Below are positions 7,236 to 48,692 of a stretch of 49,192 nt of DNA, piece by piece. The position numbers and the translations under genes are program-made. The notes beneath the pieces were generated by a model. The model worked only from the letters and a program-made list of their open reading frames with translations. It ran no database searches and was not told the DNA's origin. Source of the stretch: a candidate division WOR-3 bacterium (lineage in GTDB: Bacteria > Hydrothermota > Hydrothermia > LBFQ01 > DSFT01); the NCBI GenBank assembly GCA_965649115.1, contig CBFGJN010000007.1, positions 1-49,192 on the forward strand. The letters run 5' to 3'. Numbering within the stretch: position 1 is the stretch's first letter; each line of letters starts with the position of its first letter.

Positions 7236-8834
7236 ATGCTAATTTCCCTTTTCTCTCAAATGAGTTTATATGGACCAGAAAGCCCAGATTGGCTTCAAGG
7301 AAGACATGACTTTAAGAAAACAGGAAAATCCGCTTGGAAGTGTAACAATCCCGCTATTGCAGATAGATTATGGAATGATAGAACAAGTTCAGATTGTTTT
7401 GGTCAAGGTGGTAATAATGTTGTTAATGTTGTAATGGATGTAAATGGAGATGGCGTTAATGAGGTTCTTGGTGCTGGAAATTATACATGTCCTTTTATTA
7501 GTATTGGCATTAGATTAAGAACTTATCCTGCTAATTCAAGCTCTTATCTATGGCAGTTATATTGGAATAATTCTGCTTCAAATACTGATGCCAATTTAGA
7601 TGCTTTTATGGCAGGTGCTATAACAAATAGTGGTAGAAGATTATTTAGTGTTGATTATAAGGAGGGTTTCTTTGGAAGTCCTAAAAGATATTTTACTGCT
7701 GTTAGTGTAAGTGGTGGAAGTGGTTCAGTTATTTACCAAAAACAAGATTGTTCAAATGATAATCCTTGTTCATCGGGACTAACAATAGCAGATGTTAATA
7801 ATGATGGTTGTCCTGAAATATATAGAGGTGTTAATAATAGAGCAGTTTCAATAAATGGATGTTCTAATAGTTATAGTGAAATATGGAATTATGATTTAGG
7901 AAATACTGTTGGAATACCTGTTATTGGTAAGATTGATAATGACCCTGATTGGGATATTGCTTTTCCCGTAGCTCCAAATATAATTAATGTAAGAAGAGCA
8001 AGTGATGGTGGTTTTAAGTTTTCTTATACACTTCCTTCAAACTTTCCTAATCTACTTGATTATGATTTTTATTCTAATGTTTTAACTGCATATGATATTG
8101 ATGGTGATGGAAAAGATGAATTAATTGTAAGGACTGGCTCTCAAATATTGGCTTTAAAATATAATGGAAGTTCATTTAATGTTTTATGGAGTTCAAATTA
8201 TTCAACGGGTTCTGCTATTGCTATTGGACCGATATTAAATGGAAATAATTTAGGTATAGCGGTGAATTCATCAGGTTCATTGCTTATTATAGATGCATCA
8301 AACGGTTCCCTCGTTGCTTCAACATCAAATGCTTATTGCGGTGCTCCTACAATTACAGATATAAATGGTGATGGGGTTTGGGATGTTTTAATTTCAGAAT
8401 GTTCTTGCGGAAATCCAACTGGTTATAGTAGAACAAATGGATTTTCTTCTCCTGTTTGGCAGGCTGGTGGTTGTGCTAGTGAGCCTCCAATCAGCTCTGA
8501 TTTAATAGTTGCTAAGTACTATCTCAATCCCGACAATACAGGGAAGATGGTTATTGTAGAAGGTGATTTTAGTTGTGATACAAATGTTTGGATGTGTGAT
8601 GCGGCAGAATTTCCTACACCTATTGAAGTAAAAGAGAATATATCATATTCAAAAGGCTATTTAAAAATAGAAAATTATAAAGGTTTTATTGAGATTTATA
8701 ATCTTGATGGAAAGAAAATTTATAAAGTTTTTTACGATAAACCAATTAAGTTAAATCTAAAAGATGGCTTATATCTTCTAAAAACAGAAAACAAAACATA
8801 TAAAATTTTATTAAAGAAGGAGGTTAAGCAATGA
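7236..8834 (+). CDS. Secreted FG-GAP/VCBS-repeat protein with a T9SS-type C-terminal domain
   Basis: Repeated DxNGDG/DxDGDG motifs; C-terminal IYNLDGKKI ... GLYLLK. Confidence 0.85.
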   Translation: MLISLFSQMSLYGPESPDWLQGRHDFKKTGKSAWKCNNPAIADRLWNDRTSSDCFGQGGNNVVNVVMDVNGDGVNEVLGAGNYTCPFISIGIRLRTYPANSSSYLWQLYWNNSASNTDANLDAFMAGAITNSGRRLFSVDYKEGFFGSPKRYFTAVSVSGGSGSVIYQKQDCSNDNPCSSGLTIADVNNDGCPEIYRGVNNRAVSINGCSNSYSEIWNYDLGNTVGIPVIGKIDNDPDWDIAFPVAPNIINVRRASDGGFKFSYTLPSNFPNLLDYDFYSNVLTAYDIDGDGKDELIVRTGSQILALKYNGSSFNVLWSSNYSTGSAIAIGPILNGNNLGIAVNSSGSLLIIDASNGSLVASTSNAYCGAPTITDINGDGVWDVLISECSCGNPTGYSRTNGFSSPVWQAGGCASEPPISSDLIVAKYYLNPDNTGKMVIVEGDFSCDTNVWMCDAAEFPTPIEVKENISYSKGYLKIENYKGFIEIYNLDGKKIYKVFYDKPIKLNLKDGLYLLKTENKTYKILLKKEVKQ

Positions 8835-9295
8835 TAGTTTTTATCTTTTCTTTTGACTTATCAGATATTGCTAACTATTACAAAAATATTCAATTAAATG
8901 AAAATTTTGAAATGACATTCTATAAATCAAAATCAAATAGAATTCGCTATAAAATCTTTGGAGATTATTACGAAAGTAAGGATAAAACAATATATGAAGG
9001 ATATTTACCTAATGGTTCAAAATCAAGAATGGAGTTTTACGAAAATAGCTATATTTATTACTTAAATGATAATGTTATTGAAAATGGTGTAATTGAAATA
9101 CCAGTTTATTCTCCATATAAAATGTTCATTTTTCTTTATGAGAATAACTATCCTTATGAAGTTATTGAAAAAGATGATGTATTAAATGTAATTTTTAATA
9201 CAGATGGAAATTATTGGTTTTTTAGAATAAGAGCAAGTGATTATAGAATTTTACAATATAGCCCTCCCCTCAAAATAAAAATTGATTTTAAATAA
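8831..9295 (+). CDS. Hypothetical, probably exported protein
   Basis: GGAGG SD and ATGA overlap; short hydrophobic N-terminus. Confidence 0.7.
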   Translation: MIVFIFSFDLSDIANYYKNIQLNENFEMTFYKSKSNRIRYKIFGDYYESKDKTIYEGYLPNGSKSRMEFYENSYIYYLNDNVIENGVIEIPVYSPYKMFIFLYENNYPYEVIEKDDVLNVIFNTDGNYWFFRIRASDYRILQYSPPLKIKIDFK

Positions 9296-9352: not shown

Positions 9353-10704
9353 CATTTATATATTTTTATTAAAACTTTATCTTTATTTTTTTCGTAAATC
9401 TCGGAAATTTTTTCCTCAATTTTTTTATTCATTAAGATAAATTTTATTTGTTCTCTAACATCTTCATATTTTGTAATTTTTTCAGGAATAAATTGTTTAA
9501 CTCTTAAAATTAAATAGAAGCCATCCTTATATATAGGTCCAATAATTGAATTTTCTTTAACATCCTTAAAATATGGTTTTAAATCATTTGGAATAGCATT
9601 TTCAGGAACATATCCTATTTCAGTTGGAGCAAATGAATTTTCCTTAGCAGTTTCTTCAAAGTTCTTTTTAGCACTTTCAAGAATAGTTAAAACTTTTTCT
9701 CTTGCTTTCTCAATATCTTCTTTTGAAGGTTTAACCTTAATAAGAATATGACTAAGCTTTACGGAATCAGAAGATTTATCATTAACTTTAAATATATTAT
9801 AACCTAAGGGTGTTCTTATGGGTCTTGTCCAAGAACCTTTTGGTGTTGAAAAGATTTCTAAAATCAAATCTTGACTTAGCAATTGAGATAAGTAATTTTT
9901 TTTAAGCCAACCTAATTCAATAATACTATCATCTGAGAATTTTTTTGCTAATTTATCAAAATTTTCTCCTTTCTGTAATTTTTTATAAATTTCCTTAATT
10001 TTATCATATGCCTTTTCTTCCTGTTCAAATGAAACGGAAACAGGAATTACAATTTGTTCTAAATAATAAATGTTTGGTTGCTTTGGGAAGGAATCTTTAT
10101 GTGTTTCATAAAAATTTTTGATCTCATCCTCAGTTATTGTAATTTCAGGAACAATATATTTTGAAATATATTTTTGAATTAGTATCTGCTTCTTTATAAA
10201 CTCTCTTTGATTTTCAATAAATTCTTTTATTGTTAAATTGTTCTTTTTTAGTTCTTCATCAAAAATTTTTTTACCTACAAATAAGAAAACTTTATTAGCA
10301 AGTTCAGGGTCAGAAAAACTTATTAAACTATCTGGGATTTCATAACTTTTTAAAATTTTTTTAATTTCAATTGTATCATTTGGATTTATACCCATTGACT
10401 GAATTTTATTAAAAATTTCAATTCTTCCATATTGGAAATATATATTGTCAATATAATTTTTTGAAAAGTTTTTAAATTCTTCTTCACTAACCGATAATGA
10501 ACTATCATTCTTAGCAAGAACAAGAATCACTCTTTGTTTTATAAAGTTTTTTAAAATTTCATTTTTTATTGAATCATTTTCCTGTAATGTTGTGCTTCTA
10601 TAAGCTTCTTCTAATTCAGAATAGAAAATTGGTTCATCATTTACAACAGCAATTACTTTATCTAAAAGTTTTAAACTATCAGATGATAGAATTAGAAAGA
10701 TCAT
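9352..10704 (-). CDS. surA: SurA-like periplasmic chaperone / PpiC-type peptidyl-prolyl isomerase
   Basis: DKVIAVVNDEPI N-domain; FDKLAKKFSDD, PIRTPLGYNIFKV, SHILIK parvulin motifs. Confidence 0.8.
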   Translation of the reverse strand: MIFLILSSDSLKLLDKVIAVVNDEPIFYSELEEAYRSTTLQENDSIKNEILKNFIKQRVILVLAKNDSSLSVSEEEFKNFSKNYIDNIYFQYGRIEIFNKIQSMGINPNDTIEIKKILKSYEIPDSLISFSDPELANKVFLFVGKKIFDEELKKNNLTIKEFIENQREFIKKQILIQKYISKYIVPEITITEDEIKNFYETHKDSFPKQPNIYYLEQIVIPVSVSFEQEEKAYDKIKEIYKKLQKGENFDKLAKKFSDDSIIELGWLKKNYLSQLLSQDLILEIFSTPKGSWTRPIRTPLGYNIFKVNDKSSDSVKLSHILIKVKPSKEDIEKAREKVLTILESAKKNFEETAKENSFAPTEIGYVPENAIPNDLKPYFKDVKENSIIGPIYKDGFYLILRVKQFIPEKITKYEDVREQIKFILMNKKIEEKISEIYEKNKDKVLIKIYK

Positions 10705-11677: not shown

Positions 11678-12721
11678 TTAATTTCTTATTTTAAATTTAG
11701 CATAAATTGGCAAATGATCTGAAAACCCTTTTCCAAGATGAATAGTAAAATTGCCTTCAAACTCAACTTGCCATCTATAAGGTATCCCATCAATCAATAG
11801 ATAATCTGCTTTAAAAACATTAAAACTATTTTTTATATAAAAAATGTTTGAATTAGTATCAAGAAGAGATTGACTAATTAAAATATGGTCTAATGTTCCC
11901 CATTTATTTTTGAAATAATGACTTCCTATTTCTTTATTTCTTAACTCATTCCATAAGTCGTACAAATAATTTTTATTTGTAAGAAATTCTTTTAAGCCAA
12001 CAATTGGTTTGTAGTTAAAAGCATCACCTTCCAAAACATCGCTTTCGCTATCATCAAAGTTTGTATTAAAATCTCCAAGTGATATAATTTTCATTTTCGG
12101 ATTTATATTAAAAAGACTATCTAATATCTTTCTGTGAATTTTTGCAATTTTTATTCTTTCGGATTCAGGAGCAACTTTACTTTTCCAATGATTTACAAAA
12201 ATTACTAAGGTGTCCTTATTTACTAAAATTTTTGCCATTAATATATTCCTAACATCAGGGATTGTTTTATAACCTATTGCTTTAACAATTTTATATTTTG
12301 AAATTAAGGCTGTTTTAACAATAGAAAATTGAGGTTTATCTGCTATTACAAAACATTTATAATTTAAATCTTTTATATGATTAAATAATTCTTCAATTGC
12401 TCTTCTTGTTTCAATTTCTTGTAATCCTATAATGTCAGGATTTAAATCACTTAAAACGTTTTTTATGTTTTCAATTTTTTTTAGGAAAAATGCTCTTGAA
12501 TAATTACTTGTTTTTTGTGAGTAATCTTTGTATTCGTATCCATTCTCAACATCATCAAATAAATTTTCAACATTATAGCTTGCAACTGTTAAAATACTAT
12601 CGTTTTTTATTGAATTTTCTACACAATTTATATCAAGTTCTTCAAAATTCTTTTCTTGAATTTTTGTAAGTTTTATTGTTGAACAAGAAGAAAGGATTAT
12701 AAATAGTAAAAATTTTTTCAT
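11678..12721 (-). CDS. Endonuclease/exonuclease/phosphatase (EEP) family lipoprotein
   Basis: LSSC lipobox; SYNVENLFD, GLQEIE, NHWKS, GDFN, LDHILIS, SDHLP. Confidence 0.88.
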   Translation of the reverse strand: MKKFLLFIILSSCSTIKLTKIQEKNFEELDINCVENSIKNDSILTVASYNVENLFDDVENGYEYKDYSQKTSNYSRAFFLKKIENIKNVLSDLNPDIIGLQEIETRRAIEELFNHIKDLNYKCFVIADKPQFSIVKTALISKYKIVKAIGYKTIPDVRNILMAKILVNKDTLVIFVNHWKSKVAPESERIKIAKIHRKILDSLFNINPKMKIISLGDFNTNFDDSESDVLEGDAFNYKPIVGLKEFLTNKNYLYDLWNELRNKEIGSHYFKNKWGTLDHILISQSLLDTNSNIFYIKNSFNVFKADYLLIDGIPYRWQVEFEGNFTIHLGKGFSDHLPIYAKFKIRN

Positions 12722-13242
12722 TTAGCTTTTATGTTGATATAGTATATAAACTGGGGTTCTAAAAAAATTTCCTTTTCTAAATTTTTTGCTAAAATTTTTA
12801 CTTGTTTTTTAGCAGGAAATGAAAATTCCGATGGAACTTTATAAGTTAATTTTTGGCTATCTGTCTCAAAAATAACTTCATTTACTTCCCCTTCAAGGAC
12901 AATATAACAGCTATCCCTATTTATGTCCTTATTGAATTCTTTCTTAATTTGATACTCATAACTTTTATGTTTCACTTTTTCTTTCTGATAACTTGGGAAC
13001 TTAAAAACCCAAACATAACCCCCCTTTAAAAAAAAGCTATCTTTTTTATTTTCATATTCAATATAATAAAAACCTTCTGGAAGTTGCATCTCATATGGAA
13101 TATAACCCATATAGAAATAATAATACTTATTGGAAATTCTTACATATAAACTTTCAGGTTCAACAAGTTTTATAATAAAATCATTCTTTAAATGTTCATC
13201 TTTTATGCTATCAATAATTATTTGTCCAATAAGAAAAAGCAT
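12718..13242 (-). CDS. Hypothetical, probably exported protein
   Basis: ATGA overlap with the EEP gene; N-terminus MLFLIGQ. Confidence 0.7.
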   Translation of the reverse strand: MLFLIGQIIIDSIKDEHLKNDFIIKLVEPESLYVRISNKYYYFYMGYIPYEMQLPEGFYYIEYENKKDSFFLKGGYVWVFKFPSYQKEKVKHKSYEYQIKKEFNKDINRDSCYIVLEGEVNEVIFETDSQKLTYKVPSEFSFPAKKQVKILAKNLEKEIFLEPQFIYYINIKAK

Positions 13243-13251: not shown

Positions 13252-13276
13252 AAAAAGAGGGCGGATAAACCACCCT
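13252..13276 (-). terminator. Intrinsic terminator directly after the acidic peptide gene
   Basis: Minus strand AGGGTGG-TTTAT-CCGCCCT-CTTTTT. Confidence 0.7.
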
Positions 13277-13454
13277 ACTCCTCTTCCTCCTCTTCATCTT
13301 CCCAATCTTCTTCCTCCCATTCTTCATCGTCTTCCCATTCTTCGTCATCTTCCCAGTCTTCATCATCTTCCCATTCTTCGTCATCCCAATCTTCATCTTC
13401 CCAATCTTCTTCCTCTTCTTTTGCTAAGAGCCATCTTTTTTTAATCTCTTCCAT
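13275..13454 (-). CDS. 59-aa Asp/Glu/Trp-repeat peptide (missing from the ORF track)
   Basis: MEEIKKRWLLAKEEEEDWEDEDWDDEEWEDDEDWEDDEEWEDDEEWEEEDWEDEEEEEE; SD AGAAAGGAGGTGA; synonymous codon variation between repeats. Confidence 0.85.
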   Translation of the reverse strand: MEEIKKRWLLAKEEEEDWEDEDWDDEEWEDDEDWEDDEEWEDDEEWEEEDWEDEEEEEE

Positions 13455-14994: not shown

Positions 14995-14999
14995 AAAAG

Positions 15000-15088
15000 C
15001 GGAGGGAGTGGGATTTGAACCCACGATCCCCAGTTAAGGGGATAACGGCTCTCCAGGCCGCCGCCTTCGTCCGCTCGGCCATCCCTCC
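15000..15088 (-). tRNA. tRNA-Ser(GGA), CCA not encoded
   Basis: Acceptor stem GGAGGGA/TCCCTCC plus G discriminator; anticodon loop CTGGAGA; long variable arm ATCCCC-TTAACT-GGGGAT; GGTTCAAATCC T-arm. Confidence 0.95.
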
Positions 15089-16313: not shown

Positions 16314-16505
16314 TGCTTTGTCCAATAAATAATGATAAGTCCTTGATTATCAATAGTTTATAAAAATTTTAAAGAAGTTATAGATTTAATGGGGGGCTTT
16401 GCCCCCCAAAGCCTAAAAATGGGCATTTATAAGCCGAAGGCTTATTATTAGGGTGGGTGGGAAAAATAAGAAAAATCAATAATTCCAGAATTATTAGACA
16501 CAGCA
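16314..16505 (+). mobile_element. Full-length MITE-like element with an 8-bp duplication, tacagcaa
   Basis: TIRs; repeat at 16306-16313 and 16506-16513; near-identical reverse complement of 6447-6650. Confidence 0.9.
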
Positions 16506-16541
16506 TACAGCAAAATTTTTCTGCTTTAAAATTTCATATTT

Positions 16542-16727
16542 ATGGAATGGATACAAGCTTTAACAATTATAGCAAGTCTTTTTGTATTTATTAGTATTGT
16601 TGCTAATTTATTAAATAAACGTATAGATGACATTAACAGAAGGCTTGATAAATTAGAAGATGATATTAGAGAAATAAGACAAATTCTTTATAAAATTTTT
16701 GAAACTCCTAAAAAGGAAGGTAATTAA
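16542..16727 (+). CDS. Small protein: N-terminal transmembrane helix plus coiled coil
   Basis: TAAAAT box 9 nt upstream; heptad pattern RIDDINRRLDKLEDDIREIRQIL. Confidence 0.75.
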   Translation: MEWIQALTIIASLFVFISIVANLLNKRIDDINRRLDKLEDDIREIRQILYKIFETPKKEGN

Positions 16728-16764
16728 ATAAAGCTTAATTATATTACATAATTTAATTGCTTTA

Positions 16765-16837
16765 TTTAAAGGCTTATTTTCGGGTGGGCGGGCAAAAAAT
16801 AGAAATAATCTGTTTTTCAGAATTACTAGATACAGCA
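16765..16837 (+). mobile_element. Partial older MITE-like copy
   Basis: gggtgggcggg tract and gaattactagatacagca terminus. Confidence 0.75.
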
Positions 16838-16846
16838 CTTTTTTAA

Positions 16847-17004
16847 TGCTTTGTCTAGTAAATGGTGTTAAATAATTGATAATCAATAACTTATGAAATT
16901 TTAAGAAAATCATTAATATGGGTAAGTAGAGCCGAAGGCTCAATTATAGGGCGGGCGGGAAAAATATAGAAATAATTATATTTTTAGAATTATTGGACAA
17001 GGCA
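16847..17004 (+). mobile_element. MITE-like element with an exact 9-bp target duplication, cttttttaa
   Basis: TIRs; repeat at 16838-16846 and 17005-17013. Confidence 0.9.
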
Positions 17005-17030
17005 CTTTTTTAAGACTTTAAAATTTTAAA

Positions 17031-18254
17031 TTGCTATTTATAGCCCCATTTAGTTATGTCTATTCAATTTTCATAAAAGATTTCAAAATTTTTTTGGGAA
17101 GCGAAATTGGAATTTTAGTTTTAGATTTAAATAGTTATAAAATTCAAAATCAATACATTACTAATTCAAAGGTTGATTTTATCACTTATAATGGTAATTG
17201 GATATATTATTTTTCTGAAAATAGTATTTACAAAATTAGTTTAAATTGGCAACTAGGACAAAGCCCATTTCTAATCAAACAAAATGTCCAAAAACCAAGA
17301 AAGTTTGGAATTTCAGAAGATTATAAAATTGTTTTAGATTATGGGAATTATAGAAAAATTTTAAATGATGCTGGATTTGAAGAAAATAATTTTTCAGGAA
17401 AAGTTTATTGGTCATCTTTTGATACTATAAATTTTCCACATAAATCCATTTGGAATTTTAAGAAAGGTCATATAAATGTTAATTTTTCATATGAATATGG
17501 TGATTATAATTTTATTGGAACAGATGGTTTAGGATTAAGAATTTATTACAAAAATTCACTAACGATGAAAGATTCTGTTATTGTTGGAACATTTAACAAA
17601 ATTTATAAATCTGCTTATATTAAGGATAATAAAATTTTCATAATAGGTGATAAAGGTATTGATATTATTGATGAGAATTTAAATAGTTCCGATTTTATAA
17701 AAATTGATGCTTGTTCAAATGAGGCAGAAATTATTGAAAATTATGTTTTTTGTAAAAATAATATATATCGGATTGAAGAAGGTCAAGCATTTGCCATTAT
17801 GAAAGCAGTTAATTATAATAGAATAAAAAAAATGAAAGATAATTTTTATATCTTGACAAATGATGGTGTTTTTAAATTTGATGGGCAAAATTTAGAAAAA
17901 ATTTATAATGATTTAGCCTATGATGTTTATTTAAAGAATGATAGTGTAATGTTTTTAAAGAAATATGATAAATTCGTTAAAGTTATTGATAGCTTGAATT
18001 ATCTTTGTTCAAGATATGGTATTGAAAATTTAAATAATAATGAAGTTTATAATTTCAATTTAGGGAATGTTAATGATTGTTCCTTTTATAATAATGAAAT
18101 TTTTGTTGCAAGTAATAATGGGCTTTTTAAAATTTTATTAGACAAAAAACAACTTTATCAATATCCAAATATAAGGAATGTGAAGAAAGTTTTAATTTTT
18201 AAAAATCATTTGCTTGCCTTAACTGAAAAAGTAATTTATTTAATAAATTTATGA
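17031..18254 (+). CDS. Hypothetical beta-propeller-like protein
   Basis: Repeated beta-strand motifs (FIGTDGLGL, LTNDGVFKFDG, VASNNGLFK); TTG start 6 nt after TAAAAT. Confidence 0.7.
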   Translation: MLFIAPFSYVYSIFIKDFKIFLGSEIGILVLDLNSYKIQNQYITNSKVDFITYNGNWIYYFSENSIYKISLNWQLGQSPFLIKQNVQKPRKFGISEDYKIVLDYGNYRKILNDAGFEENNFSGKVYWSSFDTINFPHKSIWNFKKGHINVNFSYEYGDYNFIGTDGLGLRIYYKNSLTMKDSVIVGTFNKIYKSAYIKDNKIFIIGDKGIDIIDENLNSSDFIKIDACSNEAEIIENYVFCKNNIYRIEEGQAFAIMKAVNYNRIKKMKDNFYILTNDGVFKFDGQNLEKIYNDLAYDVYLKNDSVMFLKKYDKFVKVIDSLNYLCSRYGIENLNNNEVYNFNLGNVNDCSFYNNEIFVASNNGLFKILLDKKQLYQYPNIRNVKKVLIFKNHLLALTEKVIYLINL

Positions 18255-18397
18255 AAAAACCTTATTAAGAAGGACATAAATTATAGTTTTTATGCAGAGG
18301 ATTTAGAGGGGTGAAGTCCCCCCAAGGCGTAAGAATGGGCATTTTAAAGCCGAAGGCTTATTAAATAATTATATTTTCCGAATTACTAGACAAAGCA
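18255..18397 (+). mobile_element. Degenerate MITE-like copy with intact R end
   Basis: aagccgaaggctt and gaattactagacaaagca. Confidence 0.75.
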
Positions 18398-18432
18398 AGA
18401 ATTATTTTTTTTCTTAACTTTAAAATTTGAAA

Positions 18433-21045: not shown

Positions 21046-21082
21046 AGAAGGGCGAAAGTGTTAAAACCTTTAAAATTTCAAA

Positions 21083-21958
21083 ATGATTTTCTTAACTTTC
21101 TTATATGAAATTAAAGTTATAGACGGAACAAAAAATGAACCTGTTGATTCCGCAGTATCATATATATTTAAAATTACACAAAATAATGTTGAATTAATAG
21201 ATAGTTATAAAGTTAAAAATGGGATTTTGAAATTTGAAATTAAAGATACTTCAGTTAAAGCAATTGGTATTCAAACGGATTATAAGGGATTTAGTTTTTA
21301 TAGTCCTGTTATAAATTTACCTATTAAAAATGAAAGTTTATTTGTATATCAAGTTAGCAATGAAGGTAATGTTCAATTTAAAGAATATGGTGCTTTTATT
21401 GTAAATCAAGATAGTATAATAATGGTAGCAGAGGATATTATTTTATCAGTAAATTCAAATAATGCTTTAATTCCAAAAGAACCTATAAAATTAGTTCTTC
21501 CAAAAGGCTTTGAAAATTTTAGATATAATGGTCTTCCACACGATAGTGTCCAAATTGTTGGTGAAAGTCTTTTAATTAAACCATTTATTATTCCAAATAA
21601 TAACAACCTTATTAGTTTCGTTTATATGGTTAAAAAGAAATTATTGCTTGAAAGGAATTTTGGTAATATAAATTACACCGTAGCAATAAGAAAAGACTTA
21701 AAACATAATATTAAAAACTTATCAAAAGGAGATATTCAAAAAATGGGAAATATAGATATACAACTATATAGAGGAAATAAACCTTTTAGTGTTCAGGCAA
21801 GCGTTATGCCATCATTTGATCTAATTAATTTGATAAATAAAAATAGATTTGTTATTGCTGGAATTGTTATTGCCATTATCGTAATAATCATTTTAATTTT
21901 ACAATCAAGAAATAAAGATGAAACTAAAAGTAAAACATCTAACGAAAAAAATCAATAA
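21083..21958 (+). CDS. Hypothetical exported protein with a C-terminal membrane anchor
   Basis: Short hydrophobic N-terminus; FVIAGIVIAIIVIIILIL helix. Confidence 0.75.
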   Translation: MIFLTFLYEIKVIDGTKNEPVDSAVSYIFKITQNNVELIDSYKVKNGILKFEIKDTSVKAIGIQTDYKGFSFYSPVINLPIKNESLFVYQVSNEGNVQFKEYGAFIVNQDSIIMVAEDIILSVNSNNALIPKEPIKLVLPKGFENFRYNGLPHDSVQIVGESLLIKPFIIPNNNNLISFVYMVKKKLLLERNFGNINYTVAIRKDLKHNIKNLSKGDIQKMGNIDIQLYRGNKPFSVQASVMPSFDLINLINKNRFVIAGIVIAIIVIIILILQSRNKDETKSKTSNEKNQ

Positions 21959-22463: not shown

Positions 22464-22479
22464 TTAAGCATTAAAAAAC

Positions 22480-35265: not shown

Positions 35266-37575
35266 TTAGTAAATTACAATCCTTTTTGATAAGTTCTTCG
35301 TCTTTAAAATATAAATACCTTTTGGTAGAAAAATTTCTTTTGATTTTCCTTTAATATACAAACTTCCATTAGCTTTGTAAATTTTATATTCAACTTCACC
35401 TCCAAAGATGACTCTATTACCTTTTATAATATAATCATTAAAAGCAATTTCCCTATTATCTGTAAGAATATCAAGCTTCCACATACTTCTTCCATGAGTT
35501 GCAACAATAAGTTTATTATTTACAATATCCATAGCAAACACATAAACATTAGGAATTCCATCCATTTTCTGCCAATTTTGTCCATTATTGTTTGAATAAT
35601 AAACCCCATCCTCCATCCCTACAAAGATAGTATTTCTTTGAAAATCTATAGCAAATGTCCTACAAGTTCTGCCAGAAGGTAAATTTCCCGTTATATCAGT
35701 CCAGGTTTGTCCTGCATCATTTGAGTATAAAACTTTTCTATTATTTGTTCTACCAACACATACATAAACATTTTTGCTATTATTCGGATTAACGATAATT
35801 TTTCTAATTGGACTTGAAGAAACATTTAAATTAGATGATCTATTTATCCAATTAGCTCCTTGATTATATGTAAAATAAAAATGCCCCTGATTAGAACCTG
35901 TATAAATTGTATCTGAATTTGTATATGAAAATTTTGCAGCAAGTAAAACACCTGTTGCTCCTGCTAAACTTGGACTAATAGTACTCCAATTATAACCACC
36001 ATCGTTTGAAAACCACAATCTATAAGTTCCTACAATAATTGTTCCATCTTGATGAACATCAACTGCCCCATTAGCCCAGTCAGCTCTATCGTTGAACCAT
36101 GGGTGCTTATAAAATAGATACTGCCAAGATGGATTTGGATATCCACTTGTTAATTGATATTTACTAAAATACCATAAGTAAATATAACTTGTCCAAAAGT
36201 AATTCGGATTTTGTAATTCAAAAATCGTAGGACCACCATCACCACCACTAACTTCTCTCCAAACTGGTAAATTATATAAAATTGGTGTTCCATTATCCTG
36301 TGTGCCACCTGTTATAACCCATTCATCATTTGGTTTAATAGCAAGCGTATAAAATTGTAATGTTCCAAGTCCTTTATTTATATTTATCCAAGTATTTCCA
36401 TCATCATAGCTTTTCCATATTCCACCATCTGTTGCCACATATAATGTTCCATCAGGACCATATGCAAAATGATGAATATCAGGATGAACGATATTTTTTG
36501 CAATTTCCGTCCAACTACTCCCTCCATCAGTGCTTTTTATAATTCCATATTGACAAGAAGAACCATAATTATGAACTCCACCAGCTATCACTACATTTGG
36601 ATTACTTGGTTTAACAATCAAAGCATGATTATAAAATCCTTGACCGCAAAGATATTCAGGAACATTTAATTGTATCCAAGTATTGCCTCCATCAGTAGAT
36701 TTATAAAAAGCATATAAGTAATAATTGTTAGAGCCAAAAGCAGCATAAATGACATTAGGATTACTACTTGAAATTGCTAATTGAGACCTAAAATAGCCTG
36801 ATGTAGGAAGATTATTTATTTTTGTCCAAGTTGAACCTCCATCTGTTGATTTATAAATACCTGTTCTTAAACTTGCAGCAAATAAAATATTTGGATTATC
36901 ACTCCTATAAACAAGATCATTTACTTGATCATATATATTTGATGCTGTCCAACTATTACCTCCATCATCAGAATATACAATACCTAAATCACTTGCAACT
37001 AAAATTCTATGTGTAATCGGATTTATAATAATTCTTGATATATAGGAACCAACTTGGTTTGAATTTGCAATTTTAACCCATGTATTACCACCATCAGTGG
37101 ATTTGAATAATCCATCACCAGGAAAACAAACTGAACAATAATTCATCTCCCCTGTACCATAGTAAATAATATCTGGATTAGAAGGGTCAAAAGCTAATGC
37201 TCCTGATGTTAATGTAGGTAAATTGTCAGTTAAAGGTGTCCATGTTAACCCTTGATCCGTTGTTTTCCAAACACCACCACCTGCTGTTGCAACATATATT
37301 ATACTTGGATTTGTAGGATGAGTTAAAATAAATGTCATCCTTCCCGAGTTTGATAAACCATCTGACCAAGAACCTTTTTCTATATAAGAAGGACCTATAA
37401 ATTGCCAATTAAACTGATTTACTTTATTAGAATAAAAAATATCGCCAACTTTTGACCATTCACCTTTTTCTAATGCTCTTAATTTTAGGCTTTCTGGGTC
37501 AAGAAATTTTACCGGACTTTCCTTTTCCTCAAAGCTTTTAAATTCCCAAGGTAAATAGAAAAAGATATAAATCAT
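35266..37575 (-). CDS. BNR/Asp-box (VPS10/sortilin-like) beta-propeller protein with T9SS-type CTD
   Basis: Many STDGGxTW repeats, VHPDIH, GGTQDNG; IYKANG ... GIYILK. Confidence 0.88.
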   Translation of the reverse strand: MIYIFFYLPWEFKSFEEKESPVKFLDPESLKLRALEKGEWSKVGDIFYSNKVNQFNWQFIGPSYIEKGSWSDGLSNSGRMTFILTHPTNPSIIYVATAGGGVWKTTDQGLTWTPLTDNLPTLTSGALAFDPSNPDIIYYGTGEMNYCSVCFPGDGLFKSTDGGNTWVKIANSNQVGSYISRIIINPITHRILVASDLGIVYSDDGGNSWTASNIYDQVNDLVYRSDNPNILFAASLRTGIYKSTDGGSTWTKINNLPTSGYFRSQLAISSSNPNVIYAAFGSNNYYLYAFYKSTDGGNTWIQLNVPEYLCGQGFYNHALIVKPSNPNVVIAGGVHNYGSSCQYGIIKSTDGGSSWTEIAKNIVHPDIHHFAYGPDGTLYVATDGGIWKSYDDGNTWININKGLGTLQFYTLAIKPNDEWVITGGTQDNGTPILYNLPVWREVSGGDGGPTIFELQNPNYFWTSYIYLWYFSKYQLTSGYPNPSWQYLFYKHPWFNDRADWANGAVDVHQDGTIIVGTYRLWFSNDGGYNWSTISPSLAGATGVLLAAKFSYTNSDTIYTGSNQGHFYFTYNQGANWINRSSNLNVSSSPIRKIIVNPNNSKNVYVCVGRTNNRKVLYSNDAGQTWTDITGNLPSGRTCRTFAIDFQRNTIFVGMEDGVYYSNNNGQNWQKMDGIPNVYVFAMDIVNNKLIVATHGRSMWKLDILTDNREIAFNDYIIKGNRVIFGGEVEYKIYKANGSLYIKGKSKEIFLPKGIYILKTKNLSKRIVIY

Positions 37576-41056: not shown

Positions 41057-42016
41057 ATGAATTTAATGACATTTATTTTGATAGGACAAAGTATAGAGAT
41101 ATATGGGGAAGAAGATACAAAAGAGGAACAGGTTAATAAAGAAGAAACAGATGATTATATATGGTTATGGAAAAAGAGTAAGGAACATACTGGATTTATT
41201 ATAAGAATTCTTGAACCAGAAGGGCAAATAGTTGAAATATATAAAGAAGGTTCAAAAAAACCTATTCATAAAGCAGATATTCCTACAAGTTTTGAGAGAA
41301 TGTTTGCCGAGGAAGGCTTTTATAAAATTGTCATTGGAGATTGGTCTAAGAAATTTGAAATAAGAAGAGGTTTTGAATATACACTTTATTTAAAGAAACC
41401 TTCTAGAAAAGAAGAATATGATGACTATTCAATTGTTAGAAAACCTTCAAAAGAAACAATTATAAAAATTCTTGAACCGAAGGGTTCAAGTGTTGAAATT
41501 TATAAAGAAAATTCTACAATTCCTATTCACAAGAGTGATATTCCAACAAGTAAAATTATACATCAACCTGGATTTTATAAGGTTATTGTTTATAATAATA
41601 ATTCAAAGTGGGAAGGTAAAATTGAAGTAAAGGAAAATTTTGAAAATATCATTTACGTTAAAAATTTAAAACCTATCAAACAAGAACCAAAAGTTATTAG
41701 TGAGGAAAGTTTTTCTGCACTTGTAAATAACATAAAAGATGAGATTTCAAGTTTTACAAAAAAAGATATTTTAAAAACAGCAGTTGATAAAAATTATTTT
41801 TATACAAAACACTTAGTTCAATTATTAGATTTGTTTATTAGTGAGATTGATAAGGAAGATGTTGTAAAGATGGTTTATCCAAAAATCATAGACAAAGAAA
41901 ACATTCATCAAATTTACTCAAAATTTATGAGTTCTATTTCAAAGGAAAACATAAGAAAGTGGATAGAAGAATATGATAATGAGGAAAATAATGAAAAAAA
42001 GGAAGGTTGGAAATGA
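41057..42016 (+). CDS. Exported protein with an internal duplicated domain and a DUF4476-like C-terminus; start moved to 41057
   Basis: ILEPEGQIVEIYKE..PIHKADIPTS and ILEPKGSSVEIYKE..PIHKSDIPTS; C-terminal YPKIIDKEN. Confidence 0.75.
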   Translation: MNLMTFILIGQSIEIYGEEDTKEEQVNKEETDDYIWLWKKSKEHTGFIIRILEPEGQIVEIYKEGSKKPIHKADIPTSFERMFAEEGFYKIVIGDWSKKFEIRRGFEYTLYLKKPSRKEEYDDYSIVRKPSKETIIKILEPKGSSVEIYKENSTIPIHKSDIPTSKIIHQPGFYKVIVYNNNSKWEGKIEVKENFENIIYVKNLKPIKQEPKVISEESFSALVNNIKDEISSFTKKDILKTAVDKNYFYTKHLVQLLDLFISEIDKEDVVKMVYPKIIDKENIHQIYSKFMSSISKENIRKWIEEYDNEENNEKKEGWK

Positions 42017-42546
42017 GAAATGTTATATTTTTAATTCTAATATCTTGTGCAACAGGATATTATGCCAAAGGCTCAGTTGTAAAAATTGACAAAACCAAAA
42101 ATTATAAAATTGCTATTATTCCACAATTAAAAAGTAATTATTTAAATGAAGATGATTTAAGGAAAATTTACAATGCCTACTATTTGGAGTTTTCAAGTAT
42201 TAAAAATTTTACAATTGTAGAAAGAGAAAAAATTGAAGAAATTATAAAAGAACTGAATTTTCAATATTCTGGCCTTGCTGATGTTAATAATGCAAAGGAA
42301 TTTGGAAAGTTGGCAGGAGCTGATTTAGTAGCGACTTATGAGGTTATTTCAGCAAGTGAAAAAATGGATGATTTTTTAAAAGAGATAGTCAGAGAGCTTG
42401 TAATTTCAATTAAAATAATTGATATTCAAACAGGTGAAGTTTTATATGTAGGTAGGGGGAGAGAAGAAGGATTTAGTGATAAATTGGATATTATAGAGGG
42501 AGCAGTTTCCAATTCAATTCATGCCCTAAAACTATCATTAAAATGA
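42013..42546 (+). CDS. CsgG/HfaB-like lipoprotein
   Basis: LISC lipobox; FTIVEREKIEEIIKE, FGKLAGAD, IIDIQTGEV. Confidence 0.8.
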   Translation: MRNVIFLILISCATGYYAKGSVVKIDKTKNYKIAIIPQLKSNYLNEDDLRKIYNAYYLEFSSIKNFTIVEREKIEEIIKELNFQYSGLADVNNAKEFGKLAGADLVATYEVISASEKMDDFLKEIVRELVISIKIIDIQTGEVLYVGRGREEGFSDKLDIIEGAVSNSIHALKLSLK

Positions 42547-43100
42547 AAAAAATTATTATTTTCGTTTTATTAACTTCTTGCATTAGTGCTACAACAAAGG
42601 AAAAATTAAATTACTTTATTGAAAAAAGGAATTTTAAAATTGCCTTAATTCCATCAAAATTCGGAAACAATTTAGACAATGTCGTAGAGGCTAAAATTAT
42701 TTCAAAGTTAAAGAATTTTGATAATATTGAAGTTATTGAAAGGAAAGATTTGAATAAAATTATAGGAGAAAAATCATTTTGGGATGAAGTAGGGAGTGAT
42801 AGTTCAATTATTGAAAATTTTAAAATTTCAAACATAGATTTGCTTGGAATTTACAATGTTGATTATTTTGATGAAAGATATGATGATTATTGTACAAGTT
42901 ATTGGGATATTAAGGAAAGTAAAATAAAAGAAAGTTGTAGATGGACGAAAATTTATGAAATAGCCATAAGTCTTAAAATTATTGATATTTCAAATTCAAA
43001 AGTTATTTTAGCTGAGACGGGAAGTTCAAAGGCTTTAAGTCTTGAAGATTGTATAGAAGATGCTATTGAAAGCATGTTTTCAAAAATAAAAGGAGGTTAA
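42543..43100 (+). CDS. CsgG-like lipoprotein paralog
   Basis: LTSC lipobox; EVIERKDLNKIIGE, LKIIDISNSKV. Confidence 0.7.
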   Translation: MKKIIIFVLLTSCISATTKEKLNYFIEKRNFKIALIPSKFGNNLDNVVEAKIISKLKNFDNIEVIERKDLNKIIGEKSFWDEVGSDSSIIENFKISNIDLLGIYNVDYFDERYDDYCTSYWDIKESKIKESCRWTKIYEIAISLKIIDISNSKVILAETGSSKALSLEDCIEDAIESMFSKIKGG

Positions 43101-43104: not shown

Positions 43105-43887
43105 ATGATGATGCTTTTATTTTTACAAATAAACAAAGCAGTTGAAATTATAAAAGATGGAAAAGTAGACTGGTCAAAAGGTATTATAACTGCTAAGGGA
43201 TATGGTGTTTTTGATGTAAATAGCAAAAATCTAAATGCGGAAATTCTTAAAGCACAAAGAGTTGCTGTTGTTGTTGCTCAAAGGAACTTACTTGAAACGA
43301 TAAAAGGTGTTTATATAAATTCTGAAACAATTGTTGAAGACTATATGCTAAAAAGTGATTTAATCATAAGTAGAGTAAATGGACTTATAAGAGGGGCAAG
43401 AATGATTGGAGAACCAAAGATAGATAAGCAAAATGGTATTGTTGAAGTAGAAATGGCTATTGATTTATATGGTGATAATAGCTTAGCAAGTGCTATTCTT
43501 CCTGAAATTCTAAAAAACACTAAAAAGCCAAAAATAGATGATATAAAAGATAATCCAAATTTTTCTGCATTAGTTCTTGATGGTTCGGGAAAGGATATAA
43601 AACCTTCTTTATTTCCAAAAATTTATGATGAAAATGGAAATTTAATTTTTGATACCGCTTGGCTTATAGATGAAAATAATCCAAGTGCTAAAAAAGTTAT
43701 AACATTTGTAGAAAATTTAAATGATATTTTAAATGACCCAGAGCTAAAAAATAATCCTCTTGTTATTAAAATAAAATCCGTTTTAAATGGAAGGGATATT
43801 GTTGTTGATAAAGATAATGCTAATAAAATCAAATGGATTAAAAAGGCATGGGAAATTGGAAAGAAAATTGTTTTAACACTATTTTAG
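43105..43887 (+). CDS. LPP20-like envelope protein
   Basis: VDWSKGIITAKGYG, AQRNLLETIKGV; GGAGG SD. Confidence 0.7.
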   Translation: MMMLLFLQINKAVEIIKDGKVDWSKGIITAKGYGVFDVNSKNLNAEILKAQRVAVVVAQRNLLETIKGVYINSETIVEDYMLKSDLIISRVNGLIRGARMIGEPKIDKQNGIVEVEMAIDLYGDNSLASAILPEILKNTKKPKIDDIKDNPNFSALVLDGSGKDIKPSLFPKIYDENGNLIFDTAWLIDENNPSAKKVITFVENLNDILNDPELKNNPLVIKIKSVLNGRDIVVDKDNANKIKWIKKAWEIGKKIVLTLF

Positions 43888-43897: not shown

Positions 43898-44938
43898 ATG
43901 ATTTTATTCTTAATTTTACAAAGTGAAAAAACTATAATTTCAGAAGGTGTCTCTTCAATAAATAATGTTTCAATAGATGTAGCAAGGGATAGAGCAATAT
44001 CAGATGCCCTAAGAAATGCTATTGAACAGGCACTTGGAACTTATATAGAGAGTCAAACAATTATTGATAATTATCAACTAATTGAAGATAACATTCTTTC
44101 AAAATCAAAAGGTTATGTAAAAAGTTACAAAATTATTTCTGAGAAGCAAGATGAGGGACTTTATAGAGTAAAAATTATGGCAATTGTAGATAATACTAAA
44201 ATTGAAGATGACTTATCCGCTTTGAAAATTTTAATTTTAGAAAAAGATAGACCAAGAATGCTTATTCTTGCTAATGAAGAATTTTTAGAAGATTTACTAA
44301 TAGAAAAGTTTTCAGATAAAGGTTTTCCAATTTTAGATCAAAAAAAATTAAAAGAAAATATGAGAAAAGAAGAATTAAGACTAATTTTTGAAGGTGCTAA
44401 TGATACATTAATAGCAAGGTACGGTTTAAGAGAAGGTGCAGAAATGATTTTAATTGCTAAATACAAAGAAAATGATAAAAAAATTGAAAGTTATAATGTT
44501 AGCTTAAAGGAAGTTTCAATTTCTTCAAGATTAATAGAACCAAGAAGTGCTGAAATTATAGCTTCTGTTAGAATTGATAAATCTTATCCAAACATTAATC
44601 AAGCAATAAAAAACCAATTAGTTGATTCATTATTTAATTTATTACTTCCAAAAACTACGAAAAAACTTCAAGAAAATAATATAGTAAAAATTTACTTATA
44701 CAATGTTGATTTTGATAAAGTTTCAAAATTAAGAGAAATTTTATTCAGTAATGTTAGAAAAATTGAAAAAATCATTCTGAGAGAATTCGTTGAAAACAAT
44801 GCCATATTGGAAATTATAACACCTGAAAATCCAACAGCAATTGCTCAAATTATAAAAAACAAGGTAAAGGAAATTGAAATTAGTGAAATTGGTAGTAATT
44901 CATTATATGTAAGATGGAAAGTTAAAACCAAACAATAA
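43898..44938 (+). CDS. FlgT N-terminal-domain envelope protein
   Basis: ARDRAISDALRNAIEQALG ... SKGYVKSYKII. Confidence 0.72.
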   Translation: MILFLILQSEKTIISEGVSSINNVSIDVARDRAISDALRNAIEQALGTYIESQTIIDNYQLIEDNILSKSKGYVKSYKIISEKQDEGLYRVKIMAIVDNTKIEDDLSALKILILEKDRPRMLILANEEFLEDLLIEKFSDKGFPILDQKKLKENMRKEELRLIFEGANDTLIARYGLREGAEMILIAKYKENDKKIESYNVSLKEVSISSRLIEPRSAEIIASVRIDKSYPNINQAIKNQLVDSLFNLLLPKTTKKLQENNIVKIYLYNVDFDKVSKLREILFSNVRKIEKIILREFVENNAILEIITPENPTAIAQIIKNKVKEIEISEIGSNSLYVRWKVKTKQ

Positions 44939-46536: not shown

Positions 46537-48692
46537 TTGTAAATTTCTCCTTCAAATTTAACAATGTATATTCCATTTCTCAAATCTGTTTTTATTTCAT
46601 TATAACCTGCATTTAAATTTCCATTAAATTCATAAACTTTTCTACCATTTATAGAATAAATTTTTAAACTAATTTTTCTGTTAGTTCCAAGGTTTAACTT
46701 AATTACACCATTACTTTCAAGCTTTATAGTCCAAACATTGTTAAATTCATCATTTGAAGTTATATTACAATTTATATTTGGATTGTAAATAAACTCAATT
46801 GCATCAGATATTACAACAACACTATTGGAGTTTTCAGAAGTCTTTGAATATAAAATAACTTTTGAATTACTATTTAAACAAAAGCTACCAAAATTTACCC
46901 ATCCCGTATCATTTAAATTATTTGAAAATTGATTTAAATAAATGATAGTATCTCCGTTTGCTCTTAAAATTCTATATTTTGCTTGTGAAGTTCTATTACT
47001 TCCTTTTCTTATCCAGGCTCTTAAACTATAACCACCAGGGCAATTTATTTGAGGATTATAAATAACTGAATCATTATTTGATGTGTAGTTATATCTATAA
47101 TCACCTGCATAACCTGTATAAGAACTTAATGGCCAAGTTCCATAAGCATTCCATCCAACATTGCCATCATCTACAATCCTATCATTACAACCACTAAGAG
47201 GTCCTTGATAAATAAAAACGACAGCATCAAAACCTATTCTTTGATTTTCTCTCCCCGAAATTGTAGTATCTCCAAGTGTTATAGAACCATTATTTATTGA
47301 ATAACCTGCATTAAATTCATAATTACCCAAATCAACCCATTGATTATTATATAAGCTTTGGTCTATCCATTTTTCTGATATACCATTTCTATGATAAATT
47401 TTATATCTTACATAAGCTTGACTATTTTGAGGAATATAAACTCTCACTTTATAAACGCCAGGAAATGGTAAAATTGGCGTCCATCTTGCCCAATTAGTAA
47501 TAGCACCTGTCCAAGAATAAGTCCAAAAATGATGACCTCCATTATAACCAATTAAACTATCAAACCACCAAGAACTATAAGGTCCTCCTCTCTTGAAATT
47601 ATAACTAAATTCATCAAATAGTGTATCCTTCCAAGATAAACCATTTACAAGTGATATGTAGTACTTCCAATCCCAATATGGTCCGGGGTCAGTGTGGCAA
47701 CTATAACCTCCACCACCCGGAACATTACAACCAGGGACTTGATTATGTCCAAGTATTGCTGATGTGTCTCTTATTTTGGGAATTGAATATAAATCCGCTA
47801 ATGTTCTTGTTATCTTAGCAGATATTGAATAAAGCGTATCTGTATACCAACCATTTTGATTTATGTACCCTTCGTGCTCAATTCCAATAGACCTTGTATT
47901 ATAATTCCAATAACCTGCATGCCAAGCAATATCTTTATGGCAAACCATTTGTGTAGAATGCCCATCAGACGATCTTAGAACATAATGTGCTGATGCTTGA
48001 GCATTAGGATTTTGAAACCAAGAAATAGCACTATTATAAGAACCCTCAGTTGTATGAATAATAACTTTACTAATTGGATAATCATAAGGTCTATTAGCAT
48101 CTGTATAATTACTATTACTTGCGGGAACAAATTGATTAACAAAGCTAAATTCTGGTTGTGGAGAACAATCTGCAGTAAATATCAAATTTGCTTTGAAAAT
48201 TGGTGCTTTTGGATTGGGTTTTACTGATAAATTATAAAATTCAACACCCTCTCTATAAATTTTTAAGACATCCTCCACAAACAAATCATTTTTTCCATAT
48301 TTTTTTAAAGCACATATTAAATCATTAGAGCATTCATTTAAAAATTTTCTTAGTAATTTAGAAGCATATCTGATATTATTTTCTTCACTCTCAACTAAAT
48401 AAGCCTTTATACCATTTAATGTAATTTTTTTGTTTATACAATTTTCACATTCAATTTCAATCGTTTTATTATAATTTATTGGGATTGAAAAATCCTTTAT
48501 TCCCATTATTCCAATAGAACTATCAATAGATGGACATTTATGGTGATAAAATCGTGTCTGAACATAAGCAATAGATTTTAATAGTTCCTTATCAACACCT
48601 TCAATTCTGCTGATATTTGAAAAAAGGCTATCAAGATATTTGTAGTAATTAACCATTTCCAAAGAAGGAGCTGAAAGGAGATAAATTAACAT
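46518..48692 (-). CDS. Secreted N-acetylmuramoyl-L-alanine amidase (Amidase_2) with accessory domains and T9SS-type CTD
   Basis: IIHTTEG, SAHY, AWHAG, SIGIEHEG, HTDPG; IYSINGRKV ... GIYIVK. Confidence 0.9.
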   Translation of the reverse strand: MLIYLLSAPSLEMVNYYKYLDSLFSNISRIEGVDKELLKSIAYVQTRFYHHKCPSIDSSIGIMGIKDFSIPINYNKTIEIECENCINKKITLNGIKAYLVESEENNIRYASKLLRKFLNECSNDLICALKKYGKNDLFVEDVLKIYREGVEFYNLSVKPNPKAPIFKANLIFTADCSPQPEFSFVNQFVPASNSNYTDANRPYDYPISKVIIHTTEGSYNSAISWFQNPNAQASAHYVLRSSDGHSTQMVCHKDIAWHAGYWNYNTRSIGIEHEGYINQNGWYTDTLYSISAKITRTLADLYSIPKIRDTSAILGHNQVPGCNVPGGGGYSCHTDPGPYWDWKYYISLVNGLSWKDTLFDEFSYNFKRGGPYSSWWFDSLIGYNGGHHFWTYSWTGAITNWARWTPILPFPGVYKVRVYIPQNSQAYVRYKIYHRNGISEKWIDQSLYNNQWVDLGNYEFNAGYSINNGSITLGDTTISGRENQRIGFDAVVFIYQGPLSGCNDRIVDDGNVGWNAYGTWPLSSYTGYAGDYRYNYTSNNDSVIYNPQINCPGGYSLRAWIRKGSNRTSQAKYRILRANGDTIIYLNQFSNNLNDTGWVNFGSFCLNSNSKVILYSKTSENSNSVVVISDAIEFIYNPNINCNITSNDEFNNVWTIKLESNGVIKLNLGTNRKISLKIYSINGRKVYEFNGNLNAGYNEIKTDLRNGIYIVKFEGEIYKWMIRK

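Follow-up and report, generated by a model that had tools for sequence, protein, structure and literature searches.

The question raised by the stretch of DNA examined here, a 49,192-nucleotide (nt) contig (contig C7, CBFGJN010000007.1 of assembly GCA_965649115.1; hereafter the window) from a candidate division WOR-3 bacterium of the class Hydrothermia, is how short an N-terminal protein export signal can be. Canonical signals for the Sec pathway and signal peptidase I consist of n-, h-, and c-regions and typically span about 18–25 amino acids (aa). A sequence-only reading of the window had drawn attention to 14 predicted exported proteins that begin with Met and a short hydrophobic run, without a basic n-region, and had proposed that the lineage uses a minimal export signal. 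We conclude that these N-termini are probably real Sec/signal peptidase I signals shortened to about 7–9 aa, with a predicted cleavage site before Gln. The proposal gains comparative support from the envelope proteins that carry the short N-termini, from their positional homology with ordinary signal peptides, from the Gln at +1, and from their concentration in one order, and it is from these patterns that we infer export and cleavage. The window is part of a 1.85-Mb genome in 99 contigs (completeness 94.5%, ~27% G+C), and the only sequencing run listed for its DNA is labelled as a hot-spring metagenome, no RNA run being listed for 16500–22500.

All 14 N-termini were found at the positions reported for them, and the pattern holds genome-wide. 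Some open proteins with a C-terminal domain of the type IX secretion system (T9SS; PF18962), namely an FG-GAP-like protein (MLISLFS then Gln, 7236–7256, + strand; PF18962 match 8610–8819), a subtilisin-family (S8) protease (MLLIISIF, 18433–18456, +; match 20857–21030), a Peptidase_S8 protein (MMFFLLTL, 27557–27580, −; match 24974–25177), and an N-acetylmuramoyl-L-alanine amidase (Amidase_2; MLIYLLSA, 48669–48692, −; match 46542–46706). Others open a SurA-like peptidyl-prolyl isomerase with Rotamase domains (MIFLILS, 10684–10704, −), a BNR/sortilin-type beta-propeller with matches to the Sortilin-Vps10 and BNR families (MIYIFFYL, 37552–37575, −), and a 346-aa FlgT_N-like protein with a FlgT_N match (MILFLIL then Gln, 43898–43918, +). 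The rest comprise a 174-aa protein of no recognised family (MLFLIG then Gln, 13225–13242, −), a TTG-started protein of 407 aa whose uncharged stretch may extend to residue 16 (MLFIAPFS, 17031–17054, +), the product of the gene at 41057 (MNLMTFILIG then Gln, 41057–41086, +), a 260-aa protein whose gene shares an operon with those of two lipoproteins (MMMLLFL then Gln, 43105–43125, +), and three proteins with no Pfam family match: one of 154 aa whose export has no independent support (MIVFIFS, 8831–8851, +), one of 291 aa with a C-terminal hydrophobic segment (MIFLTFLY, 21083–21106, +), and one of 296 aa (MIVCLFFFL, 29552–29578, +). The Gln residues that had been noted directly after the hydrophobic run in five of these proteins are indeed there (7257, 13224, 41087, 43126, and 43919), and the pattern is, as claimed, foreign to cytoplasmic genes of the window (by eye, 0 of about 20 recognisable ones).

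Could longer, ordinary signals be hidden by mis-called starts, or by assembly frameshifts in the A-rich codons of a Lys-rich n-region? The sequence-only reading had held that mis-calling cannot explain the pattern. This stands for 12 of the 14 genes, in which an in-frame stop lies 0–7 codons upstream of the start, while the genes at 37575 and 41057 leave room upstream and are what such an artefact has in its favour. In codons separating the start from the closest in-frame stop upstream, the distance is 0 at 10704, where the tal stop abuts the ATG; 1 at 8831 and 13242; 3 at 17031 (the stop lying inside a conserved TTTAAAATTT box), 18433, 21083, 27580, and 48692; 4 at 7236 and 29552, the latter start overlapping the stop of the upstream gene (ATGA); 5 at 43105; and 7 at 43898. 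A TTG two codons upstream of 18433 would add M-K only. At 37575 the stop is 30 codons away, and those open codons contain no ATG, GTG, or TTG. The start at 41057 is ambiguous (stop 18 codons upstream), as an alternative TTG at 41036 gives a normal MRFKIFT n-region; we regard the ATG as the likelier start because the TTTAAAATTT box either includes that TTG or follows it. In a three-frame view of the 14 window genes, no MKK-type start was seen upstream in the other two frames.

The same holds beyond the window. We applied a strict rule to all open reading frames (ORFs) of the genome, asking for at least 5 hydrophobic residues among residues 2–7 and no K, R, D, or E before residue 8, and obtained a short-type set of 140 ORFs after dropping starts whose hydrophobic stretch continues in the manner of a membrane anchor. 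An in-frame stop lies at most 5 codons upstream in 102 of the 140, and in 100 no extension is possible even with near-cognate codons. Mis-calling is thus rejected for most cases, as stops and near-cognate codons leave no room for it. Assembly frameshifts are rejected as well, given the lack of MKK-type starts in other frames, the intact MKK-type, Lys-rich lipoprotein signals in the same assembly, and the recurrence of the same short starts in independent genomes of two families. An artefact of either kind as the general explanation seems to us scarcely credible.

The start calls are also supported from outside the coding sequence, by the spacing of Shine-Dalgarno sites and TTAAAAT boxes. Genome-wide, GGAGG upstream of ORFs peaks at −12, with 205 ORFs at −15 to −9; within the window, AAGGAGG precedes the genes at 8831 and 43105 and AGGGGG that at 43898. 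TTAAAAT, present at the 7236 gene, begins 12–16 nt before the start in 366 of 1728 ORFs, a spacing that fits, and points to, a −10 box on leaderless or near-leaderless mRNAs. The conserved TTTAAAATTT box stands 4–9 nt before the start at 7236, 17031, 18433, 21083, 27580, 37575 (7 nt before the ATG), 41057, and 48692, and is itself preceded by a TTAGAATTA-N-T-N-GACAA block at 17031, 18433, 27580, and 37575. In the same vein, a tRNA-Ser(GGA) gene (14999–15088, −) ends 4 nt before the ATG at 14994 of an IscU/SufU-like gene, which is consistent with a leaderless or near-leaderless mRNA there. A GTG-started ORF called at 15024 runs through the end of this tRNA (MGSNPTPSAF...), and the same tRNA-derived peptide is found ahead of another short signal on contig C31.

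If the short N-termini are export signals, they should be concentrated on exported proteins, and for this the T9SS domain PF18962 offers a marker of export that is blind to the N-terminus. The genome has 45 PF18962 matches, 3 of them at contig ends, leaving 42 assessable. Read by eye, 29 of the 42 begin with Met and 5–9 uncharged, mostly Leu, Ile, or Phe residues before polar sequence; 6 carry canonical K/R signals of 17–23 aa ending in Ala plus Gln, Glu, or Lys; 2 start with MMELILI, 2 are ambiguous, and 3 lack a signal or are fragments. By the strict rule, the short form occurs on 21 of 41 T9SS-tailed ORFs vs. 154 of 1688 others (odds ratio 10.5, Fisher p = 1.8e-11), so that the pattern, once tabulated across the genome, is enriched on exported cargo and not equally common elsewhere. 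A Pfam scan (E ≤ 1e-4) of 93 short-type proteins (regions were fetched for 96, and three longer than 1100 aa were dropped) assigned a family to 55, of which 38 are envelope or extracytoplasmic. These include BamA, a TonB-dependent receptor, three OmpA-family proteins, BamD-like, SurA- and PpiD-like, and DsbA-like proteins, YceI, NlpC/P60, a penicillin-binding-protein transpeptidase domain, a soluble glucose dehydrogenase, and peptidases of families M1, M10, M14, M16, M28, S8, and S49. Ten of the 55 are cytoplasmic (two Cas2, Cas6, Pth, CutA, a nucleotidyltransferase, an alcohol dehydrogenase, CinA, an HTH protein, and a bactofilin), 6 are ambiguous, and 1 is a polytopic membrane protein. Several short-type proteins carry CxxCH haem-attachment motifs, and haem attachment at CxxCH requires a protein exported unfolded. 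The short hydrophobic N-terminus is overwhelmingly an envelope feature, though not a fully specific one.

These counts bear on the idea that the N-termini are a by-product of codon or amino-acid bias at the 5′ ends of genes, in an AT-rich genome with leaderless mRNAs, and sit on exported proteins by chance. The low G+C content of the genome, the −10-like box 12–16 nt before many starts, and the ten cytoplasmic carriers would fit such a bias, yet the enrichment on T9SS-tailed ORFs and the 38 carriers from envelope families do not. Nor does the presence of K or R in residues 2–6 of 1110 of 1729 ORFs overall, compared with 9 of 41 T9SS-tailed ones, or the occurrence of the pattern on Shine-Dalgarno-led genes. 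Members of the sister family whose DNA upstream of the SurA genes is visibly richer in G+C (by eye) keep the short form, which is thus not merely a matter of AT bias. Composition bias in its pure form is rejected by the enrichment tests, and we consider chance placement through bias highly improbable.

What, then, argues that the short N-termini are signal peptides and not some other feature of exported proteins? They occupy the place of ordinary signal peptides in homologues, as alignment with homologues to place the mature start, the check proposed along with the sequence-only reading, made plain for SurA-like proteins, BamA, and three sets of paralogues. SurA-like orthologues were collected from 40 relatives as 30 loci, of which 27 were resolved. 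N-termini of 7–9 aa are found at 5 resolved loci of the 7 in the window's own family (all from its own genus; the script could not resolve the start in the other two) and at 11 of 11 loci in the sister family, in each case directly before the conserved mature start D-[KR]-[IV]-[VIA]-A-V-V. In other families of the class, the same mature motif is preceded by signals of 9–17 aa, several with K or R (e.g., MKKFLILFLPLVVLAQ, MIHRLALLLVPALMLAQ, MRRTGLLVLLLSGFLYAQ, and MIKILILFFSQ). Gln stands right after the hydrophobic run at 24 of the 27 resolved loci. BamA orthologues show the same pattern, and in the window's family no more than 7 codons are open ahead of their hydrophobic run.

Within the genome itself, three sets of paralogues pair a K/R signal of 17–22 aa ending in ...AQ with an N-terminus of 7–9 aa ending in ...SQ or ...LQ. 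The alignments place a gap of 7–15 residues within the signal, and the mature sequences are alike from Gln onward. The first pair is MLRLLITITLFISIGYAQ vs. MIFLIISQ, both about 12 residues ahead of a CxxCH motif; the second is MRSFYLILFFFGVLNAQ vs. MAMLFVIELQ; and in the third, MIRKIIKIMILTMGGIYYLNAQ (C16:19817, a 22-aa K/R signal ending in ...LNAQ) is set against the MLISLFSQ of the 7236 gene.

The composition around the presumed cleavage site points the same way. The first strongly polar residue falls at position 7–10 in 110 of the 140 short-type ORFs. It is Gln in 43 of the 140, vs. the 6% expected from the share of Gln in the proteome's D/E/K/R/N/Q pool (an enrichment of about five-fold), and K or R in 11 of the 140, vs. 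39% expected. Counting back from Gln, 35 of the 43 have L, I, or V at −3, and 24 have S, T, G, or A at −1. Residues 9–22 have a net charge of −0.33 in short-type ORFs vs. +0.38 in other ORFs (p = 3.5e-5), a net acidity that suits the beginning of a mature chain outside the cytoplasm. Almost every short-type ORF has a bulky residue 2, and the hydrophobic run is 5–7 residues long.

Several of these properties, together with the ten cytoplasmic carriers, weigh against the reading as a shortened Sec signal. In 19 of the 43 cases with Gln, position −1 is a bulky L, I, F, or Y; this breaks the small-residue rule and is what, at the level of sequence, speaks most against a textbook cleavage site. A usual h-region has about 7–15 residues, so that the run is at or below the lower limit, and below the h-region lengths that work in Escherichia coli; a run of 5–7 residues is too short for a membrane-spanning helix. 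In addition, no clear change in SecY, SecA, or LepB explains the short signals, and a plant-type glutaminyl cyclase (PF05096) was not found in the window genome at its 94.5% completeness (the animal-type enzyme was not searched for).

The bulky −1 residues and the short run are the very points that would favour a different reading, in which the N-terminus is an export or retention tag that signal peptidase I does not cleave, serving as a short one-leaflet anchor or being trimmed by another protease, with the protein crossing by Sec/YidC through targeting by its mature part. The absence of the Gln from three close SurA orthologues and from the window genome's BamA would also suit this reading. 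Against it, Gln sits exactly at the ...A-Q cleavage site of the canonical homologues and is strongly enriched, both of which are hard to account for unless cleavage takes place there. Nor would one expect an anchor on SurA, a soluble chaperone of the periplasm, on BamA, a barrel of the outer membrane, or on proteins like them. We therefore hold the uncleaved tag to be unlikely, and continue with the shortened, cleavable Sec signal as the preferred reading.

The short signals do not stand alone in this genome. Canonical type I signals number roughly two dozen (by eye), and four other ORFs of the genome have twin-arginine signals of normal length. Lipoproteins were said to keep a K/R-containing signal; 58 lipobox ORFs with K or R bear this out, although a few lack both residues. 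Ordinary lipoprotein signals within the window, for contrast, are MKKFLLFIILSSC (12683–12721, −) and MKKIIIFVLLTSC (42543–42581, +), with a further lipoprotein signal, MEMRNVIFLILISC, at 42007–42048 (+). The coexistence of canonical K/R, lipoprotein, and twin-arginine signals with the short ones indicates that the machinery accepts long and short forms. The short N-termini themselves match none of the other classes: a lipobox ending in Cys was not found on them, save for a few matches to a loose pattern; no twin-Arg motif (RR-x-[FLIVM]-[LIVMF]) precedes the run, the short-type rule itself excluding K, R, D, and E from residues 2–7; and the type IV pilin (class III) signal is not matched, there being no charged leader and the hydrophobic run ending by residue 7–10.

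Is the short form a property of this genome, or of a larger clade? In five other genomes, we picked T9SS cargo by its C-terminal domain and read 12 N-terminal regions each by eye, from script-called starts. The sister family of the same order (G009) has 8 short uncharged N-termini, 2 with K/R, and 2 unclear. None of the other four has the short form, at ≤9 aa in the case of G032, and 2 regions are unclear in each: among members of the same class, G032 has 7 K/R signals and 3 uncharged ones of 10–16 aa, G024 has 10 K/R signals, and G031 has 5 K/R signals and 5 uncharged ones of 12–18 aa; G046, of another class, has 10 K/R signals (MKK-type, 18–21 aa). A look at two genes each in five genomes of other classes found both canonical and fairly short uncharged signals. 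The window's order is thus where the extreme short form is commonest, and intermediate forms occur elsewhere.

We then asked whether the export machinery itself is altered, as the sequence-only reading had thought possible for SecA, SecY, and LepB. The evidence does not support this as worded, as only small differences were seen: SecY is canonical, LepB keeps its motifs, and SecA and YidC are present. The window genome has one SecY (G000:C64; L159:1291-2604), one LepB (G000:C51:2593-3252), one SecA without Cys in its 80 C-terminal residues, and one YidC, with a C-terminal tail of about 11 residues. Each of 38 of 41 genomes has one LepB match, and in 19 aligned copies, including that of the window genome, the SGSM/SSSM and KR motifs are conserved in alignment with signal peptidase I of E. 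coli; we take them to carry the catalytic Ser and Lys. Two short segments that the 13 aligned LepB from other families of the class possess are missing from the 6 of the window's order: an aromatic loop of ~8 residues ahead of the final strand, and some 5 residues of an earlier loop.

SecY is single-copy in all 41 genomes except a contaminated one with two. This is G017, of the sister family (7% contamination), which has second copies of both BamA and SecY; the extra BamA matches the second genus of the window's family, the extra SecY is divergent from all of the class, and counts from this genome need care. An alignment of 30 SecY sequences is canonical except at one position of what we assume to be the pore ring (I82, I86, I187, I191, I278, and I408 in E. 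coli), so that a remodelled SecY is rejected. Ile occupies the positions of I82, I86, I191, I278, and I408. At the position of I187, the window's genus has Ser and three related groups have Ala, as does Aquifex SecY; the rest of the class has Ile or Val. The differences in LepB and SecY are linked to the short signals only as a weak correlation.

The altered part of the pathway is instead the signal recognition particle (SRP), which had been named for inspection along with SecA, SecYEG, and LepB, and which was not found in the class. The M domain of Ffh (PF02978) matched 0 of 41 class genomes and all 14 control genomes, and PF00448, the GTPase domain of SRP, matched none of 5 class genomes, of which two are 99–100% complete in 3–4 contigs. 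In a search of 151 genomes of the phylum, PF00448 matched 99, mostly with two strong matches whose frame lengths are typical of Ffh and FtsY, and none in any family of the window's class, bar weak matches in one family. Where checked, the weak SRP54-domain match is a PEP-CTERM-associated ATPase (in the one family-f3 genome tested), and the single mid-strength matches in families f18, f22, and f26 are FlhF, the only such protein kept by the one genome tested from each. In the window genome, tblastn with 6 FtsY and 5 Ffh proteins of other classes returned nothing better than E = 0.001, and no DTAGR motif was found in a GTPase context. SRP RNA (RF00169) was found in 0 of 5 class genomes vs. 4 of 5 genomes of SRP-bearing classes. 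Thus neither Ffh, FtsY, nor 4.5S RNA was found in any class genome searched, nor in several other families of the phylum.

It is tempting to connect this absence with the short signals, but the two do not go together. G024 has no SRP and yet carries canonical signals on its T9SS cargo (10 of 12), while in G050 and G163, SRP-bearing genomes of other classes, SurA or BamA begins with a short uncharged N-terminus. Loss of SRP thus does not account for the short signals and is rejected as their sole cause. The same genomes speak against the idea that the short N-termini feed a different, novel targeting route that has replaced SRP in the clade, in which case the Sec/LepB reading would be no more than partly right. 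Such a route would make sense of the missing Ffh, FtsY, and SRP RNA, but no candidate factor for it was identified, and we judge it very unlikely. An Oxa1-like YidC tail that might compensate for SRP loss was not seen either, the tail being as short as stated above.

How a shortened Sec signal might work can be sketched from the sequences. The signal would consist of Met and 5–7 residues rich in Leu, Ile, and Phe, with Ser, Gly, Thr, or Ala often at the end, and with a cleavage site just before Gln inherited from longer ancestral signals. Given a bulky residue 2, Met1 should stay in place, and its amino group would be the sole positive charge of the “n-region.” In line with work on signal peptides as allosteric activators of the translocase and on the prl suppressors of E. 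coli, the hydrophobic heptapeptide may enter the lateral gate of SecY and suffice to open it. Both the smaller residue at one pore-ring position and a high growth temperature may assist, the latter perhaps by reducing a barrier for which long signals are normally needed. LepB would then bind the heptapeptide as an extended P7–P1 strand and cut before Gln, the whole signal being about as long as the extended P7–P1 segment that signal peptidase I binds. The exposed Gln would cyclise to pyroglutamate, possibly spontaneously at hot-spring temperature, which we propose because no plant-type cyclase was found. A bolder synthesis, which we offer tentatively as a possibility, is that the clade dropped the otherwise universal SRP and that one order within it exports most of its non-lipoprotein envelope proteins by a gate-opening plug of 6–8 residues that is at the same time the full P7–P1 substrate. 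If this were true, no membrane-spanning hairpin would form, and there would be a new lower bound for what Sec needs in a signal.

Compared with canonical Sec signals, the short ones are alike in being N-terminal and hydrophobic, in their place on periplasmic, outer-membrane, and secreted proteins, in the aliphatic −3, and in the presence of SecY, SecA, and LepB. They differ in totalling about 7–9 residues, in lacking a basic n-region, in having h- and c-regions merged into 5–7 residues, and in the bulky −1 of a large minority. Strains of E. coli with prl mutations in SecY or SecE export proteins with defective or missing signal sequences; here, too, translocation would proceed with a much weakened signal, and one pore-ring position of SecY is Ser or Ala. 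Unlike in those strains, a wild lineage would be in this state as a matter of course, and its SecY is otherwise canonical.

The Gln recalls the Q-rule, by which Gln at +1 is cyclised to pyroglutamate and which, in the portion of PMC5837995 consulted, is described as specific to Bacteroidetes within the FCB (Fibrobacteres–Chlorobi–Bacteroidetes) group; Q-rule substrates of Bacteroidetes are also treated in a part of PMC10653852. As in Bacteroidetes, Gln follows a large share of signals, canonical and short and T9SS cargo included, and it does so in the window genome and in most class relatives sampled. The phylum, however, is a different one, no plant-type cyclase was found, and the signals are far shorter. 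The Q-rule thus seems to reach another phylum.

For the apparent lack of SRP there are precedents as well. SRP loss is natural in mitochondria (PMC8321541, in part) and tolerated in mutants of Streptococcus mutans (PMC8546722, in part). The class resembles these in making membrane proteins without Ffh and FtsY, and differs from them in being a whole clade of apparently free-living bacteria whose YidC has no ribosome-binding extension of the Oxa1/YidC2 kind. In a literature search that did not extend to subscription journals and supplements, we found no description of lineage-wide ultra-short signals or of free-living bacteria without SRP. A term search of the text available for two WOR-3 papers (PMC12285271 and PMC12542636) met no mention of SRP, ffh, or secretion.

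The consequences would be several. If the heptapeptides work, no shorter export signals would be known from bacteria, and a natural lineage would be able to dispense with the n-region and a long h-region in Sec export, which bears on how SecA and SecY recognise their substrates. They would also offer very small secretion tags for thermophiles. Predictors trained on signals of at least 15 aa will probably miss most of the secretome, and T9SS cargo would seem to have no signal. With SRP apparently absent from a clade of apparently free-living bacteria, SRP-less targeting of membrane proteins becomes testable in nature, and the class Hydrothermia has a cultured member, strain sy37 (described in the accessible part of PMC12285271, with the class taken from that of PMC12542636).

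A minor feature of the window adjoins one of the 14 genes. Between citrate synthase and the gene at 13242 lies an ORF of 59 aa (13275–13454, −) that encodes a strongly acidic, Trp-containing repeat (EDWEDDEEW-like), and an overlapping frame and the opposite strand also give low-complexity ORFs there.

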